DNA of 11,334 nucleotides, from IMG/VR virus record IMGVR_UViG_2695420373_000009, one strand, 5' to 3'. The stretch comes from a virus (Duplodnaviria; Heunggongvirae; Uroviricota; Caudoviricetes). The position numbers were made by a program, and so were the translations under genes. The notes under the pieces were generated by a model that made no database searches, was not told where the DNA came from, and saw nothing but the letters and a program-made list of their open reading frames with translations. Positions 3,498-10,515 of this stretch are shown one piece after another (position 1 is the first letter of the stretch; each line of letters opens with the position of its first letter).

Positions 3498-4406
3498 ATG
3501 CCGATTATCGACCTGAACCAGCTACCCGCACCGGATGTGGTCGAGGAGCTGGACTTTGAAACCATTCTTGCCGAACGCAAGGCGACACTGATTTCCCTTT
3601 ACCCGGAAGACCAGCAGGAGGCGGTCGCCCGTACCCTGACGCTGGAATCCGAGCCTCTCGTCAAACTGCTGGAAGAAAACGCTTATCGTGAGCTTATCTG
3701 GCGTCAGCGTGTGAATGAGGCCGCACGGGCGGTGATGCTGGCCTGTGCCGCCGGTAATGACCTTGATGTGATTGGTGCCAATTACAACACCACGCGCCTG
3801 ATTATCACCCCGGCAGATGATTCGACTATCCCGCCGACACCGGCAGTGATGGAGTCTGACACCGATTATCGTCTGCGTATTCAGCAGGCGTTTGAGGGCT
3901 TAAGCGTCGCCGGGTCGGTGGGAGCCTATCAGTATCATGGTCGCAGTGCTGACGGGCGTGTCGCGGATATTTCTGTCACCAGTCCGTCTCCGGCCTGCGT
4001 CACCATCTCTGTGCTGTCACGTGAAAATAACGGCGTCGCATCCGAAGACCTGCTGGCTGTGGTGCGTAACGCCCTTAATGGCGAGGACGTCAGGCCGGTG
4101 GCCGACCGCGTGACCGTGCAGTCTGCCGCCATCGTTGAATACCAGATAAACGCCACGCTTTACCTTTACCCTGGTCCCGAAAGCGAACCCATACGCGCTG
4201 CCGCCGTGAAAAAACTGGAATCGTACATCACGGCACAGCACCGGCTGGGGCGTGACATCCGTCTGTCTGCCATTTATGCCGCTTTGCATGTGGAAGGCGT
4301 GCAGCGTGTTGAACTGGCTTCACCACTGGCCGACATCGTGCTCAACAGTACGCAGGCGTCTTTCTGTACCGAATACCGCGTCGTGACCGGAGGCTCGGAT
4401 GAGTGA
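3498..4406 (+). CDS. J: Baseplate protein J, 302 aa
   Basis: ORF 3498..4406; length and position match P2 gpJ; the downstream gene start overlaps its 3' end. Confidence 0.88.
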   Translation: MPIIDLNQLPAPDVVEELDFETILAERKATLISLYPEDQQEAVARTLTLESEPLVKLLEENAYRELIWRQRVNEAARAVMLACAAGNDLDVIGANYNTTRLIITPADDSTIPPTPAVMESDTDYRLRIQQAFEGLSVAGSVGAYQYHGRSADGRVADISVTSPSPACVTISVLSRENNGVASEDLLAVVRNALNGEDVRPVADRVTVQSAAIVEYQINATLYLYPGPESEPIRAAAVKKLESYITAQHRLGRDIRLSAIYAALHVEGVQRVELASPLADIVLNSTQASFCTEYRVVTGGSDE

Positions 4407-5010
4407 TTCGCGACTGCTGCCGACCGGCTCATCACCGCTTGAAGTCGCTGCTGCAAAAGCCTGTGCGGAAATTGAAAAAACGCCGGTCAGTATTCGTGAG
4501 CTGTGGAACCCGGACACCTGCCCGGCAAATCTGCTGCCGTGGCTGGCGTGGTCATTTTCGGTTGACCGCTGGGATGATAAGTGGCCGGAAGCGACAAAAC
4601 GCGCTGTTATCCGCGATGCGTATTTCATTCACTGCCATAAGGGCACTATAGGCGCAATCCGGCGTGTGGTGGAGCCGCTCGGCTATCTGATTGAGGTGAG
4701 GGAGTGGTGGCAACTCAATGAGGAGCCGGGGACGTTCCGTATCGTTGTTGGCGTGCTTGAGCAGGGTATTACCGAGGAAATGTATCAGGAGCTGGAGCGC
4801 CTCGTTGCTGATGCAAAACCGGCAAGCCGCCATCTGACGGGACTGGCTATCAGTTTAAGTACAACCGGCAACATTTTTGCCGGTGCGGGATGCTATCACG
4901 GCGACGCCCTGACAGTTTATCCCTACACCCCGGAGGCCATTATTGTCGGAGGGGATTATTTCCCGGCCTCGGCCATTCATTTAATTGATAACCTGAGAGT
5001 AAACGCATGA
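4399..5010 (+). CDS. I: Baseplate/tail-fibre attachment protein I, 203 aa
   Basis: ORF 4399..5010 with GGAGG RBS; N-terminus MSDSRLLPTGSSPLEVAAAK... recognised as gpI-type; stop overlaps the H start (ATGA at 5007-5010). Confidence 0.85.
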   Translation: MSDSRLLPTGSSPLEVAAAKACAEIEKTPVSIRELWNPDTCPANLLPWLAWSFSVDRWDDKWPEATKRAVIRDAYFIHCHKGTIGAIRRVVEPLGYLIEVREWWQLNEEPGTFRIVVGVLEQGITEEMYQELERLVADAKPASRHLTGLAISLSTTGNIFAGAGCYHGDALTVYPYTPEAIIVGGDYFPASAIHLIDNLRVNA

Positions 5011-6128
5011 CAGTGAAATACTACGCCATTCTGACTAATCAGGGCGCGGCACGGCTGGCTAACGCGACGATGCTCGGCAGTAAGCTGAATCTGACGCAAA
5101 TGGCCGTTGGTGATGCAAATGGTGTCTTGCCGACACCAGACCCGGCACAGACAAAACTGATTAACCAGAAACGCATCGCGCCGCTGAATCTTCTGAGTGT
5201 TGACCCGAACAACCAGAGCCAGATTATTGCGGAGCAAATCATCCCTGAGAACGAGGGCGGATTCTGGATCCGTGAGATTGGGCTTTATGATGATGAAGGC
5301 GTACTCATTGCGGTGGCGAACTGCCCGGAAACGTACAAACCGCAGTTGCAGGAAGGCAGCGGTCGTACCCAGACTATCCGCATGATTCTGGTTGTCACGA
5401 ATACCGAAGCTATCACGCTGAAAATCGACCCGTCGGTGGTACTGGCGACCCGTAAATACGTGGATGATGAAGTCCTGGAATTAAGGCTGTATGTGGATGA
5501 CCAGATGAGGAACCATATTGCCGCACAGGATCCTCATACCCAGTATGCACAGAAACATAATCCGACATTTACCGGAGAACCAAAAGCGCCGACGCCTGCC
5601 GCAGGAAATAACACCACGCGGATTGCGACCACTGAGTTTGTTCAGGCCGCTATTACCGCTCTGATTAACGGTGCGCCAGCCACGCTGGACACACTGAAAG
5701 AAATTGCCGCAGCCATTAACAATGACCCGAAATTCAGCACCACCATTAACAATGCGCTGTCAGGTAAGCAGCCACTGGATGAGACGCTGACTCATTTGAG
5801 TGGAAAGGATGTTGCCGGTCTTCTCGCATACCTTGGTTTTGGAGAAGGTGCTAACTGGGTTATGTTACCTGGAGGAATGATAATTCAGCGTGTTTATCTT
5901 GGATTTCCTGTTGGCACCAATGTAAGACACATAACTTTCCCCCGGTCGTTTACAACAACGAACTATTCCATCTCAATTAACTGGAATGATATCGGTACTG
6001 TAACAACTGAAACACAATCGCCAGCAAATGTGGCGGTTGTTCATCAAACAAAATCATTAACAGGGGCCAGCATCTGGCAGGCAGGTCCCGGGGGATTTAA
6101 TGTGGACATTATAGCGGTGGGGTATTGA
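5007..6128 (+). CDS. H: Tail fibre protein H, 373 aa: constant N-terminal part (5007-5834) fused in the present orientation to variable C-terminal cassette Sv (5835-6128)
   Basis: ORF 5007..6128; N-terminal region resembles P2 H / Mu S / P1 S constant domains and contains a tail-fibre repeat-like segment ([31 protein letters not shown]). A gix-like crossover site lies in frame at 5821-5846. Confidence 0.85.
5821..5846 (+). repeat. gix/hix-like 26-bp recombination site, left boundary of the invertible segment
   Basis: TTCTCGCATACC-TT-GGTTTTGGAGAA: two 12-bp imperfect inverted half-sites around a 2-bp core, matching the Din-family pattern (TTATCCAAAACC-NN-GGTTT...). Bases 5833-5850 form a 17/18 inverted repeat with 7573-7590. 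Confidence 0.7.
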
Positions 6129-6129
6129 T

Positions 6130-6558
6130 ATGTACGTATGGAGCGCTAAAGCAAATGGCTTTTTCCCCATATCGGAGAAAGAAAAATTTGAGGCATCAGG
6201 TCTGTGGCCTGATGATGGTGTAATAGTCAGTGAGGAAGAACATAAAAAGTTATTTATGGATATTCCACCAGGAAAACAGATTGGAACACTGAATGGAAAA
6301 CCAGCACTGATAGATATTCCTCAGCCGACCAAAAAGGAATTAATAGCTATTGCTGAAGTTAAAAAATCCCAATTACGGGAAAAAGCTGACAGTGAAATAT
6401 CCTGGCGTCAGGATGCTGTTGATGCTGATATCGCAACTGATGAAGAAACTTCAACTCTCACCGAATGGAAGAAATACCGTGTGCTGCTGATGCGTGTTGA
6501 TACTTCAACAGCACCCGATATTGAATGGCCTACGCCTCCGGCAGTTCAGGCCAGATGA
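6130..6558 (+). CDS. Tail fibre assembly protein (Tfa; P2 G / Mu U family), 142 aa
   Basis: ORF 6130..6558 starting 2 nt after the H stop; C-terminal motif ...[26 protein letters not shown] is typical of the Tfa family (compare lambda Tfa ...[22 protein letters not shown]). Confidence 0.8.
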
Positions 6559-7123
6559 CATCCGGCGCGGTGCTGGTATCTGTTGCCGTCACCGCGTCAA
6601 TGTAATCCAGCACGGCGTTAAGTCGGGTTGTTTCTGCCTGAGTCAGTTTCCGTCCGGCCTGTAATTTCAGCTGAATCAGACTAATGGAAGCCATTGCTGC
6701 ATCAATCAGTGACTGGCGCTGTGCTTCTGCTGCTTCTACTGCGGCGTTATGCTGTGCCTCAGTATCTGTCACCCATTTCTCACCATCCCATTTATCATAT
6801 GTCGTTAACGGTGAAAGCGTGACATAACCGTTTTTGATGGCACCGATATAATCCACTGTAACAGCTGCGCCATTTTCTGTTGAGTAAACAGTCTCATTGC
6901 GATGGTCTTCTTCATGGCTCCATCCCTTACCCGTGAATACTGCCACTTGCCCCGGAATGTATTCGCCCGGGTCAATACCAGTGGAACAGGCGGGCATACT
7001 TACGCCAGTATTAATATATTCATCAGACCAGCCCGTATATTCAGACGTTACTGCATCATAATAATAACAACGCATATCACCCGGCACTGTAGCCAGCCCA
7101 TTTTCATCAAAAACAGGTTTCAT
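6530..7123 (-). CDS. Alternative tail fibre assembly protein (Tfa'), 197 aa, partner of the Sv' cassette
   Basis: Minus-strand ORF 6530..7123; C-terminal ...[30 protein letters not shown] carries the same Tfa motif; its start overlaps the Sv' stop (TAATG on the minus strand). Confidence 0.8.
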
Positions 7124-7629
7124 TATGCAGCCCTCACAATATAATTAAAGGCGATGTTACGTGGACGGTTTTCATTAGCTGTTGGCACGACACGAGAGGC
7201 GTCGAATCCAAGGTCATCGGTTTTGCCTATAGCAGTTGTGTTATTCGCCATTGTCGCTGTTCGTGTTCCTGCATCGTAAAAAGCCCCTCTGATTGCATCA
7301 AAAGACATGCCGATCCCGCCATCTGCGAATCCCTCAATATTTCTTATTGCATCCCCCTGTGAAGATAATAATTGTCGCCCGGCATCTACACCACGCCCGT
7401 CATCCCAGCCACGAATAAATTCACCGCGTAAATCAGGCAATTTATTTGTCGGGTAAGCCTTTGCCAGTTCCGGGTATTCTTCAGCAGAAAAAGCCGCACC
7501 ATTGCATTTTAGCCAGCCTGTTGGCGGAGTGGAGGAAGGCCACGGGACAGGCACACCAACGGGTAATGCCGAACCTTCTCCCAAACCAACGTTTATAAAA
7601 ATGCAGAGATAACGGGCAACTGGCATCAT
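7123..7629 (-). CDS. Alternative tail-fibre C-terminal cassette Sv'; silent in this orientation, predicted to fuse to H after inversion
   Basis: Minus-strand ORF 7123..7629; the crossover site maps to its codons 14-19 (VGLGEG) in the same frame as in H; contains a tail-collar-like receptor-binding motif (PWPSSTPPTGWLKCNGAAFSAEEYPELAKAY). The first 13 codons lie outside the invertible segment and have no evident RBS. Confidence 0.7.
   Translation of the reverse strand: MMPVARYLCIFINVGLGEGSALPVGVPVPWPSSTPPTGWLKCNGAAFSAEEYPELAKAYPTNKLPDLRGEFIRGWDDGRGVDAGRQLLSSQGDAIRNIEGFADGGIGMSFDAIRGAFYDAGTRTATMANNTTAIGKTDDLGFDASRVVPTANENRPRNIAFNYIVRAA
7576..7601 (-). repeat. gix/hix-like 26-bp recombination site, right boundary of the invertible segment, inverted relative to 5821-5846
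   Basis: Plus strand TTCTCCCAAACC-AA-CGTTTATAAAAA; the inner half-site matches the reverse complement of the site-1 inner half at 11/12 positions; core AA is the complement of the site-1 core TT. Confidence 0.7.
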
Positions 7630-7656
7630 CTCCGGTTTTTATTCAGGGGGATGCTC

Positions 7657-8250
7657 ATGCTTATTGGCTATGTACGCGTGTCAACAAATGACCAGAACAC
7701 GGAATTGCAGCGTAACGCGCTGGAGTGCGCAGGATGCGAGCGGATTTTTGAGGATAAAATCAGCGGCACGAAGTCCGACCGACCGGGACTGAAAAAACTG
7801 CTCAGAACATTATCAGCAGGTGACACTCTGGTAGTCTGGAAGCTGGACAGGCTGGGGCGTAGTATGCGGCATCTGGTCATTCTGGTTGAGGAACTGCGCG
7901 AACGCGGCGTTAATTTTCGCAGTCTGACGGATGCTATTGATACCAGCACGCCGATGGGGCGTTTTTTCTTTCATGTGATGGGTGCCCTGGCTGAAATGGA
8001 GCGAGAACTCATTGTCGAGCGGACACGCGCCGGACTGGAAGCGGCCAGAGCCAAAGGTCGTATTGGTGGCAGACGTCCGAAACTCACCGCGAGTGAGTGG
8101 GAGCAGGTCGGACGGTTGCTGGCTGCGGGGGAATCTCGTCAACGTGTGGCGCTGATTTTTGATATTGGCCTGTCCACGCTCTATAAAAAATTCCCCTCAT
8201 CAGCGGCAAAGAATAAATTGTGTCATCCCTTAGCCAACCGGGACAAATAG
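7657..8250 (+). CDS. Site-specific DNA invertase, serine recombinase of the Gin/Hin/Cin/Pin (Din) family
   Basis: ORF 7651..8250; protein MLIGYVRVSTNDQNTELQRNALECAGCERIFEDKISG...GRFFFHVMGALAEMERELIVERTRAGLEAARAKGRIGGRRPKL... is near-collinear with recalled Mu Gin, including the catalytic Ser in YVRVS. Start placed at the ATG at 7657 (GGGGG at 7646-7650 gives better spacing than the ATG at 7651). Confidence 0.9.
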   Translation: MLIGYVRVSTNDQNTELQRNALECAGCERIFEDKISGTKSDRPGLKKLLRTLSAGDTLVVWKLDRLGRSMRHLVILVEELRERGVNFRSLTDAIDTSTPMGRFFFHVMGALAEMERELIVERTRAGLEAARAKGRIGGRRPKLTASEWEQVGRLLAAGESRQRVALIFDIGLSTLYKKFPSSAAKNKLCHPLANRDK

Positions 8251-8309
8251 CCTGACATCTCCGGCACAACTGAAAATAACACTCACCCATTAACCACGGA
8301 GTTAAACGG

Positions 8310-9500
8310 ATGAGTGACTATCATCACGGCGTGCAGGTGCTGGAGATTAACGACGGCACCCGCGTCATTTCCACCGTATCCACGGCCATTGTCGGCATGG
8401 TCTGTACGGCCAGCGATGCGGATGCGGAAACCTTCCCCCTCAATAAACCGGTGCTGATTACCAATGTGCAGAGCGCAATTGCAAAGGCTGGTAAAAAAGG
8501 CACGCTGGCGGCATCGTTGCAGGCCATCGCTGACCAGTCAAAACCGGTCACCGTTGTTGTGCGTGTGGAAGACGGCACCGGCGACGACGAGGAAACGAAA
8601 CTCGCGCAGACCGTATCCAATATCATCGGCACCACCGACGAAAACGGTCAGTACACCGGACTGAAAGCCCTGCTGGCGGCGGAGTCGGTAACCGGTGTTA
8701 AACCGCGTATTCTCGGCGTGCCGGGGCTGGATACCAAAGAGGTGGCTGTTGCACTGGCATCAGTCTGTCAGAAGCTGCGCGCTTTCGGGTATATCAGCGC
8801 ATGGGGCTGTAAAACCATTTCCGAGGTGAAAGCCTACCGCCAGAATTTCAGCCAGCGTGAGCTGATGGTCATCTGGCCAGATTTCCTCGCATGGGATACG
8901 GTCACCAGTACCACCGCCACCGCGTATGCCACCGCCCGTGCGCTGGGTCTGCGCGCTAAAATCGACCAGGAGCAGGGCTGGCATAAAACGCTGTCCAATG
9001 TCGGGGTAAACGGTGTTACCGGCATCAGTGCCTCTGTATTCTGGGATTTGCAGGAGTCCGGCACCGATGCTGACCTGTTGAACGAGTCAGGTGTCACAAC
9101 GCTGATTCGCCGTGACGGTTTCCGATTCTGGGGTAACCGTACCTGCTCTGATGACCCGCTGTTCCTCTTTGAAAACTACACCCGCACCGCGCAGGTGCTG
9201 GCCGACACGATGGCTGAGGCGCACATGTGGGCGGTGGACAAGCCCATCACCGCAACGCTGATTCGCGACATCGTTGACGGCATCAATGCCAAATTCCGTG
9301 AGCTGAAAACAAACGGCTATATCGTGGATGGCTCATGCTGGTTCAGCGAAGAATCCAACGATGCGGAAACCCTCAAGGCCGGAAAACTGTATATCGACTA
9401 CGACTATACACCGGTGCCTCCTCTCGAAAACCTGACCCTGCGCCAGCGTATTACCGATAAATACCTGGCAAATCTGGTCACCTCGGTTAACAGCAATTAA
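8310..9500 (+). CDS. FI: Contractile tail sheath protein FI, 396 aa
   Basis: ORF 8310..9500 with GGAG RBS; length and sequence recognised as P2 FI-type sheath. Confidence 0.9.
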   Translation: MSDYHHGVQVLEINDGTRVISTVSTAIVGMVCTASDADAETFPLNKPVLITNVQSAIAKAGKKGTLAASLQAIADQSKPVTVVVRVEDGTGDDEETKLAQTVSNIIGTTDENGQYTGLKALLAAESVTGVKPRILGVPGLDTKEVAVALASVCQKLRAFGYISAWGCKTISEVKAYRQNFSQRELMVIWPDFLAWDTVTSTTATAYATARALGLRAKIDQEQGWHKTLSNVGVNGVTGISASVFWDLQESGTDADLLNESGVTTLIRRDGFRFWGNRTCSDDPLFLFENYTRTAQVLADTMAEAHMWAVDKPITATLIRDIVDGINAKFRELKTNGYIVDGSCWFSEESNDAETLKAGKLYIDYDYTPVPPLENLTLRQRITDKYLANLVTSVNSN

Positions 9501-10087: not shown

Positions 10088-10363
10088 ATGAACAAAGAAA
10101 ATGTCATTACCCTGGAAAATCCGGTCAATCGTGGTGAGCAGGTCATCGAACAGGTCACGCTGATGAAACCTAACGCCGGGACGCTGCGCGGTGTCAGTCT
10201 GGCAGCGGTCGCGAACTCCGAAGTCGATGCACTGATTAAGGTGCTGCCGCGCATGACGGCACCGATGCTGACCGAGCAGGAAGTCGCCGCGCTGGAACTG
10301 CCTGACCTTGTGGCGCTGGCCGGTAAGGTGGTCGGTTTTTTGTCGCCGAACTCGGTGCAGTGA
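10088..10363 (+). CDS. E: Tail assembly chaperone E, 91 aa
   Basis: ORF 10088..10363; product MNKENVITLENPVNRGEQVIEQVTLMKPNAG...; position between the tube and tape-measure genes. Confidence 0.88.
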   Translation: MNKENVITLENPVNRGEQVIEQVTLMKPNAGTLRGVSLAAVANSEVDALIKVLPRMTAPMLTEQEVAALELPDLVALAGKVVGFLSPNSVQ

Positions 10364-10515
10364 CGTTTCCGAAAAATCTCTCGGTCGATGACCTGATGGC
10401 GGATGTGGCAGTGATATTTCACTGGCCGCCATCGGAACTGTATCCCATGAGCCTGACCGAACTCATCACATGGCGCGAAAAGGCGCTCCGGCGAAGCGGA
10501 AACACGAATGAGTAA
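10088..10515 (+). CDS. E': E+E' fusion produced by -1 programmed ribosomal frameshift at T_TTT_TTG (10336-10342); about 142 aa
   Basis: Slippery heptamer in the E frame (codons TTT 10337-10339 and TTG 10340-10342, preceded by T). The -1 frame is open from 10342 to a TAA at 10513-10515 (VAELGAVTFPKNLSVDDLMADVAVIFHWPPSELYPMSLTELITWREKALRRSGNTNE), ending in an ATGAGTAA overlap with the T start. Confidence 0.75.

Follow-up and report, generated by a model that had tools for sequence, protein, structure and literature searches.

Introduction

Host-range variation by site-specific inversion, in which alternative receptor-binding tips are set on a constant fibre shaft, is a textbook mechanism. In the G segment of phage Mu, inverted by Gin (S-U / U'-S'), the constant part Sc lies outside the segment, the variable parts Sv and Sv' lie inside it with the chaperones U and U', and gin sits to the right of the segment. 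The locus described here, which lies in a stretch of 11,334 nucleotides (hereafter the window), shares this arrangement. Like the window's sites, the Mu site (gix) is 26 bp long; it places its 2-bp core at positions 2-3 of a Leu codon ahead of G-L-x-E, with both S and S' reading N-L|GLQET. Mu differs in its core, which is TC and not TT, in the size of its G segment (~3 kb, with larger tips), in having S' annotated from a GTG leader, and in belonging to a Mu-like transposable phage.

The C segment of P1, inverted by Cin, is closer in some respects. Its cix sites have a TT core, and the S junction, Y-L|GLREL, shares both its register and its Tyr-Leu with the tail-fibre gene H of the window. The 5' end of cin contains an annotated enhancer, to which a stretch of the window is homologous. 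The P1 segment differs in measuring 4.2 kb and in having cin on the opposite side relative to S. The Salmonella Hin system, which inverts the H segment, uses a recombinase of the same family and likewise has 26-bp sites (hix) and a Fis enhancer; in the Gin, Cin and Hin systems alike, the Fis-dependent enhancer lies within the 5' end of the invertase gene. Hin flips a promoter and splices no alternative C-termini onto an open reading frame, so it carries no reading-frame constraint.

The P segment of e14, a cryptic prophage of E. coli K-12, is inverted by PinE (stfP-tfaP / tfaE-stfE) and has a constant part, two convergent tip and chaperone cassettes, and the invertase directly to the right, as in the window. 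Its sites, CTCTCGAAAACC-TT-GGTTTGGGAGAA and TTTTCATAAACG-TT-GGTTTGGGAGAA, are almost identical to those of the window, and its junction peptides, N-L|GLGEG in StfP and N-V|GLGEG on the StfE side, place the core at codon positions 2-3 in the same way. The e14 inverted repeats have been given as TTGGTTTGGGAGAAGG (PMC12529663), the same sequence as the inner arm of the window's second site. e14 differs in that its constant part and virion module are unrelated (a YmfQ/gp46/gp47 baseplate, versus P2 J/I/H in the window). Further, the K-12 StfP tip is another allele than the window tip, and the window invertase has a C-terminal tail 13 aa longer than that of PinE.

Switches of this type have also been described in P2-like phages. 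In the P2-like prophages of EPEC E2348/69, fibre-tip inversion was shown by sequencing and PCR, with two variants at one locus and three sites and four variants at another (PMC4272514). Inversion of the fibre gene of Salmonella Fels-2, by Fin, was inferred from a comparison of LT2 and LT7 (PMC7953296). The EPEC prophages, Fels-2 and pro483 are of the same phage type as the window and likewise have the switch between H and FI; the three-site EPEC locus differs from the window's two sites, and the tip alleles of other P2-like prophages differ as well. The feature in the window is a standard invertible tail-fibre switch whose mechanism is already known, with many copies in public genomes and in the literature.

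Results

Two convergent tip cassettes between a pair of predicted crossover sites

The window corresponds to the late region of a P2-like prophage of E. coli. Its gene order fits the P2 type, R-S-V-W-J-I-H-(G)-FI-FII-E/E'-T, with the switch between H and FI, and Pfam matches were found to LysC, GpR, Phage_tail_S, the V spike, gp25/W, Baseplate_J, Tail_P2_I, Phage_tail_fib, the FI sheath, the FII tube, the E chaperone and P2 GpE. FI, FII, E/E' and the start of T lie downstream of the invertase. At the nucleotide level the window is 96-98% identical to pro483 and other P2-type E. coli phages, and 97-99% identical to prophages of many complete E. coli genomes. With positions 5000-8300 as the query, the best match in a phage collection was pro483 (96% identity over 63% of the query). 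The features on which the argument draws are these:

3498-4406: J, P2-type late gene
4399-5010: I, P2-type late gene
5007-6128, plus strand: H, the tail-fibre gene in its present form, 373 aa
5007-5834, plus strand: constant N-terminal stretch of H, residues 1-276, not included in the invertible segment; equivalent to Mu/P1 Sc
5821-5846, no strand: predicted left 26-bp crossover site, with outer half-site TTCTCGCATACC, core TT (5833-5834) and inner half-site GGTTTTGGAGAA
5835-6128, plus strand: tip 1, a gp53-like C-terminal domain of 97 aa that starts GFGEG and is now fused to H
6130-6558, plus strand: tail-fibre assembly chaperone for tip 1, 142 aa (Pfam Caudo_TAP, E=1e-33)
6530-7123, minus strand: tail-fibre assembly chaperone for tip 2, 197 aa (Pfam Caudo_TAP, E=5e-28)
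7123-7587, minus strand: tip 2, a collar-domain receptor-binding tip of 154 aa plus stop that starts GLGEG and is at present unjoined to H
7576-7601, no strand: predicted right 26-bp crossover site, on the plus strand with inner half-site TTCTCCCAAACC, core AA (7588-7589) and outer half-site CGTTTATAAAAA
7588-7629, minus strand: 14-codon leader, MMPVARYLCIFINV, from the ATG at 7629, in frame with whichever tip sits at the right end
7657-8250, plus strand: Gin/Cin/Pin-type serine DNA invertase, 197 aa if translated from the ATG at 7657 and 199 aa if from the in-frame ATG at 7651
7675-7746, no strand: candidate recombinational enhancer stretch in the 5' end of the invertase gene, homologous to the enhancer annotated in P1

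The first, sequence-only reading of this DNA had proposed a crossover site at 5821-5846 with an inverted partner, and our search returned exactly such a pair. The left site reads TTCTCGCATACCTTGGTTTTGGAGAA; the right site, read on the minus strand, is TTTTTATAAACG-TT-GGTTTGGGAGAA. Both have the Din-family form, being inverted, 26 bp long and built of imperfect 12-bp half-sites (..AAACC) around identical 2-bp cores. The four half-sites are TTCTCGCATACC, TTCTCCAAAACC, TTCTCCCAAACC and TTTTTATAAACG, with TT as the core in both sites. Of these half-sites, TTTTTATAAACG, on the outer side of site 2, departs most from the consensus. The two inner half-sites differ by one base, GGTTT[T/G]GGAGAA, which is the F/L difference in the encoded peptide.

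We searched the whole 11.3-kb window with CCTTGGTTTKGGAGAAGG, an 18-nt pattern of core plus inner half-site, allowing up to three mismatches. The only two matches were the sites at 5821-5846 and 7576-7601, in inverted orientation; 0.03 matches were expected by chance, and none of 200 shuffles reached two. A repeat finder recovered the same pair as an inverted repeat of 20 nt at 90% (5830-5849 / 7573-7592). No third or cryptic crossover site was found in the window by the pattern search at this threshold. A multiple-inversion system of the p15B Min or R64 shufflon type, which has at least three sites and more than two arrangements, was considered and rejected, as only two sites are present in the window.

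Between the predicted cores lies a 1753-bp segment (5835-7587) that holds two convergent tip and chaperone cassettes, the two chaperone genes overlapping by 29 nt. The layout is that of the Din family: a constant 5' part outside, and opposed 3' parts inside, each with its own chaperone and in frame both ways. Upstream of the segment, H residues 1-150 match the Pfam Phage_tail_fib N-terminal domain (E=1e-62), positions 5000-5759 are 98% identical to P2-type H DNA, and at 5580-5755 the constant region resembles repeated elements of P1 Sc (76% identity). Tip 1 matches Pfam Gp53-like_C at E=1.7e-4, slightly short of the curated cut-off, and the same tip in inverted-state loci is named 'gp53-like domain-containing protein' in RefSeq. 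Tip 2 matches Pfam Collar (E=9e-16, 7126-7587) and, among solved structures, the receptor-binding regions of short and long tail fibres (a short tail fibre, PDB 9cuy, E=6e-32; T4 gp37, 2xgf, E=2e-15).

A full-length serine invertase adjoins the right-hand site

The invertase gene is full length and directly adjoins site 2. Its product carries the Pfam Resolvase (E=8e-53) and HTH_7 (E=5.5e-13) domains and an intact GYVRVST motif with the catalytic Ser, and it matches the Gin crystal structure 3uj3 (E=2e-94) and the Hin DNA-binding domain (E=3e-9). It is 78% identical to P1 Cin, 77% to Mu Gin, 86% to e14 PinE and 99% to the invertase of fEC.1.

The P1 record places the enhancer at cin nt 19-90, and the equivalent stretch of the window, 7675-7746, is 78% identical. 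This stretch may be a Fis-bound enhancer assisting inversion; its conservation is inseparable from protein-coding constraint. Third-codon-position identity in the stretch versus the rest of the gene was 0.46 versus 0.34 against cin and 0.38 versus 0.53 against gin; the two comparisons revealed no consistently raised third-position conservation. Candidate G-N13-C pairs for Fis lie 49 nt apart within the stretch, an ambiguous fit to the 48-nt spacing of the Fis sites in the enhancer. A simple promoter and terminator scan of 5700-8350 gave one weak promoter-like match, which was below the shuffle count, and no sigma-70-like promoter for the invertase.

The reading frame is kept across the junction in either orientation

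At both sites the TT core makes up the second and third letters of a codon, CTT (H residue 276) and, on the minus strand, GTT, in agreement with the sequence-only reading. The junction peptide is Y-L|GFGEG in H and N-V|GLGEG in the window's Sv', where the minus-strand peptide around site 2 runs ...CIFINV-GLGEG-SALP. That reading had further predicted that inversion of 5835-7587 would yield a single 430-aa open reading frame from 5007. We obtained this frame on reverse-complementing 5835-7587 in silico (or 5833-7589, or 5834-7588): tip 2 comes into frame with H, and the inverted junction shows neither a frameshift nor a stop. The proposed swap from 373 to 430 aa thus held, but the pentapeptide had been counted in addition to tips of 97 and 154 aa. 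GFGEG and GLGEG fall inside those lengths (373 = 276 + 97; 430 = 276 + 154).

A comparison of junction peptides, suggested by the same reading, showed that Mu S, P1 S and e14 StfP hold the core in the same codon positions. Because Mu, P1, e14 and the window all put the core at codon positions 2-3 before G-(L/F)-x-E, the frame-exact coupling is a conserved design of the Gin/Cin/Pin family. The coupling had been put forward as strong evidence that the repeats are functional. That they are functional is supported, but agreement of frame by itself is weak evidence, having a chance of 1 in 3. The case for site function is instead supported by the 154-codon open frame, the domain matches and the natural inversion pairs described below, and the broader claim, that these are functional recombination sites switching the tips of H, is backed by the 430-aa frame, the domain matches, the adjacent invertase, the natural pairs and the shared codon register.

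The G-(L/F)-G-E-G peptide largely mirrors a DNA consensus, ..ACC-NN-GGTTT..GA.., read in a fixed frame. HK97 Stf reads ...TNL-GLGEG-SALPVGVPVPWPS... over ..CACAAACC-TT-GGTTTGGGAGAA, at a locus where no invertase is annotated. Because this protein carries the peptide over an intact-looking site without an annotated invertase, the peptide is not restricted to active switches and also marks a module boundary or a fossil site. For the same reason, we rejected, as its sole explanation, the idea that it is a mere by-product of an active site.

Both orientations occur in natural prophages

We queried complete E. coli genomes with a 2353-nt stretch of the locus, both in the window state and inverted in silico, at a coverage of at least 80%. 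The window state was present in 13 genomes and the inverted state in 18; the two orientations are about equally common. Strain assemblies with such prophages record just one of the two states, and the prediction of host range or receptor for P2-like phages needs both tips.

Near-isogenic pairs of prophages differ by this inversion. When the P2-like locus of NH-21 is inverted in silico between the predicted cores, 2943 of 2944 nt agree with that of Res13-Lact-PEB08-01; after the same treatment of the E2 locus, 2942 of 2943 nt agree with the P2-like locus of NMBU-W12E19. Within each pair the invertases share one accession (WP_134874293.1 in NH-21 and Res13, WP_000905108.1 in E2 and NMBU-W12E19), and the chaperones also have identical protein accessions. 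In the e14-like prophages of GF8 and GF75, identical flanks of 3027 and 3312 nt enclose a 1725-nt middle that is exactly reverse-complemented. The segment thus inverts at the predicted sites in near-identical prophages, as distinct from this physical copy.

Among the E. coli genomes searched, none carried an exact inverted-state counterpart of the window, with its own two tips, at a P2-like locus. The closest inverted-state P2-like locus with this tip pair is that of elppa4 (98% coverage, 96.7% identity), which lacks the leader ORF. We used near-isogenic pairs as evidence of inversion because the elppa4 copy, the best of its kind, falls into three pieces with extra DNA, 3162 nt of the record corresponding to the 2353-nt query. 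LR-45 and NCTC8623 were rejected as simple inversions of the window: the collar tip is fused to H in both, but the second cassette is different.

Loci whose two inner half-sites differ, one having T and the other G, are informative as to where strands are exchanged. T travels with the gp53-like tip in all eight such loci, in four of which this tip is on the left and in four on the right, and in every locus the outer half-sites keep their place, ..CATACC to the left and ..TAAACG to the right, whichever way the segment lies. Because the T/G polymorphism moves with the tip and the outer half-sites stay fixed, exchange is confined to 7 nt, TT-GGTTT, which include the canonical 2-bp core. This confinement is consistent with site-specific cleavage at the core and argues against homologous exchange spread across the entire 16-20-nt repeat.

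Annotation pipelines miscall the other of the two states: in several inverted-state genomes, PGAP makes 'pseudogenes' out of an intact 427-aa H. It splits inverted-state H into two pseudogene fragments in E2, ws5-3, Z1323PEC0008, NH-21 and AST81, and in E2 we read the H frame as intact at 427 aa.

A proposed mechanism and its alternatives

Very probably, the sequence at 5821-5846 serves as the left recombination site in an inversion switch of the Din family (Gin/Cin/Pin/Hin type), carried by a P2-like prophage of E. coli; we found nothing in the window that speaks against this reading. Dimers of the invertase (7657-8250) would bind the two inverted 26-bp sites, and, by analogy with the family, an enhancer within the 5' part of the invertase's own gene, bound by Fis, would assemble the invertasome. 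All four strands would then be cut with a 2-nt stagger at the central TT/AA, as is expected from related enzymes, one half-site and subunit pair would rotate by 180 degrees, and the matching TT/AA overhangs would religate. The 1753-bp segment 5835-7587 would flip as a result, always leaving H residues 1-276 fused in frame to the facing tip, because at both sites the core fills positions 2-3 of the codon that precedes G-(L/F)-G-E-G. Two forms of H are predicted: H-373, which ends in the gp53-like tip, and H-430, which ends in the collar tip, each with its matching chaperone gene immediately downstream. The constant part of H would be transcribed with the late operon, and only the H-facing cassette lies downstream of that operon; because of this, one tip and its own chaperone would be expressed per state. 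A population of lysogens would release phage of two presumed receptor specificities, a form of host-range bet-hedging.

The alternative that survives best is that this copy is a fossil or locked switch that no longer inverts, with the invertase silent or inactive, the enhancer damaged or site 2 degenerate, so that H is fixed at 373 aa. Locked relatives are known. SRY149 is a locked derivative in the window orientation whose invertase gene is reduced to a 108-nt remnant, and HK97 Stf retains a complete-looking site at a locus without an annotated invertase; the simple scan, moreover, gave the window's invertase no sigma-70-like promoter match. Against this, the window's invertase is of full length and nearly matches its fEC.1 counterpart (99% identity), invertases of identical accession (WP_134874293.1 and WP_000905108.1) stand beside segments in both orientations, both window cores are TT, and the outer half-site of site 2 is one base off those of loci seen in both states. 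We consider a locked copy improbable.

Exchange might instead proceed by RecA-type homologous recombination between the short inverted repeats and not at a site-specific core. The arms do share a 20-nt inverted repeat at 90%, and the comparative data alone narrow the exchange only to a 7-nt interval. However, a dedicated serine invertase lies adjacent to the repeats, a 20-nt repeat is far below the homology length that RecA normally needs, and exchange on the outer side of position 6 of the inner half-site, which excludes about 9 nt of the shared repeat, was seen in 8 of 8 informative loci. We hold this route to be very improbable indeed. Finally, that the repeats are a chance palindrome with a coincidental likeness and frame can be dismissed with near certainty. 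Frame agreement by itself has a prior of 1 in 3, but two pattern matches arose in 0 of 200 shuffles, 154 stop-free codons have a probability of roughly 6e-4 under uniform codon usage ((61/64)^154), the alternative tip has fibre-domain matches, and exact natural inversions end at these sites.

The right-hand junction carries a conserved leader

The site-specific switch also has a right-hand junction, where the 14-codon leader runs into the tip that faces away from H. With tip 2 it forms a 168-aa open reading frame (7123-7629), and after inversion it would form one of 111 aa with the gp53-like tip. Of 15 related loci, P2-like and e14-like, 14 keep the leader and its ATG-ATG. This leader is the counterpart of the start of e14 stfE, a short leader ORF being common to both. 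According to a recent report (PMC12529663), phage T2 is kept from adsorbing by StfE2, the e14 inversion product made of the leader and a gp53-like tip.

By analogy, the right junction could be purposeful too, the switch toggling a free-standing tip protein made from the leader (168 aa or 111 aa); we regard this as unlikely. If true, the 'silent' side of the switch could serve the prophage for receptor masking or superinfection exclusion, as e14 would suggest. A functional free tip protein of the kind claimed for e14, made from this in-frame leader, is the one forward-looking angle that the locus offers.

The switch as a portable module

Positions 5822-8195 of the window align with the e14-like prophage of GF75 as one 2375-nt block at 93% identity, and no similarity between the two loci was detected beyond this block. 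Because the block is common to an otherwise unrelated e14-like prophage, with no similarity beyond it, the tips and invertase make up a portable module of ~2.37 kb, bounded on the left by the crossover site (5822) and on the right by the 3' end of the invertase gene. The crossover site may, on this comparison, also be the point at which the whole switch is spliced in when it is transferred horizontally.

The collar tip (~7165-7572) is a different allele from that of the fEC.1 and E2 prophages, which are otherwise 97% identical, and the boundaries of this allele fall near the tip/chaperone junction and at site 2.

A switch module shared with an unrelated prophage

DNA comparison aligned window 5822-8195 with positions 3001-5373 of L007, the e14-like prophage GF75, as a single 2375-nt block of 93% identity that takes in the entire invertible segment together with the invertase gene. 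The GF75 prophage backbone is e14-like, with a YmfQ/gp46/gp47 baseplate, and is unrelated to the window's prophage. On its left the block begins exactly at the left crossover site's opening bases; its right limit lies 16 nt short of the pinE stop. The inversion switch acts as a portable module, with the recombination site forming its left edge. At window 8196-8250, the invertase has a C-terminal tail (..SSAAKNKLCHPLANRDK) reaching about 13 aa beyond PinE and Cin, the e14 and P1 invertases. This extra tail is common to other P2-like copies, whereas e14-like copies are without it.

Tip exchange and the right-end leader

Within the segment, the collar tip (window 7165-7572) and the tip of fEC.1 and E2, P2-like prophages that are otherwise 97% identical, are different alleles, with a 'SALP...' tip in the window versus an 'APAI...' tip in the other two. 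The replacement is limited by site 2 and by a point near the tip/chaperone junction, so cassettes are exchanged within the invertible segment. Two further features of the switch are as follows.

6530-6558, opposite strands: 29-nt overlap of two convergent tail-fibre assembly genes
7588-7629, minus strand: 14-codon leader MMPVARYLCIFINV, part of ORF 7123-7629

The overlap is annotated identically in all related loci. The leader reads in frame into either tip, whichever occupies the right end, and its ATG-ATG and frame are kept in 14 of the 15 related loci, P2-like and e14-like. The putative product of ORF 7123-7629 is the counterpart of e14 stfE/StfE2; StfE2 has been reported to block T2 adsorption (PMC12529663).

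Annotation of H in the inverted state

In E2 (L004), RefSeq/PGAP splits H (973-2256) into two 'incomplete' pseudogene fragments, and H is likewise split in L011, L012, L013 and L014; all five are inverted-state genomes. The break between fragments falls near the crossover site. Despite this annotation, the E2 H ORF is uninterrupted at 427 aa. The switch thus gives rise to false pseudogene calls for inverted-state H, an artefact of annotation.

Loci with no complete invertase annotated

The lambdoid phage HK97 (L019) has no annotated invertase within the fetched stretch. Its Stf contains ...TNL-GLGEG-SALP... (stf, approximately 1490-1530, reverse-complement position), and the DNA under this peptide has an intact-looking crossover site, CACAAACC-TT-GGTTTGGGAGAA. 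The HK97 tip and tfa share 92% identity with window 6517-7594. The crossover-like stretch in HK97 stf is a fossil site or a module boundary. In the relative SRY149 (L002), a 108-nt remnant (6114-6221) is all that is left of the invertase gene, and the orientation is the same as the window's; its switch is presumably locked, unless another Pin works in trans.

Other features of the window

Window 5580-5755, a portion of the H constant region, shares 76% DNA identity with P1 (L010) 11878-12053, in the repeated b elements of Sc, the constant part of tail-fibre gene S. This similarity reflects an old mosaic relationship between P2 and P1 fibres. Elsewhere, the E chaperone gene (10088-10363) has a TTTTTTG run (10336-10342) at its end, and after the run comes a GpE-family ORF (10360-10515) that overlaps this gene. 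The run looks like the programmed -1 frameshift site of P2 E/E+E'.
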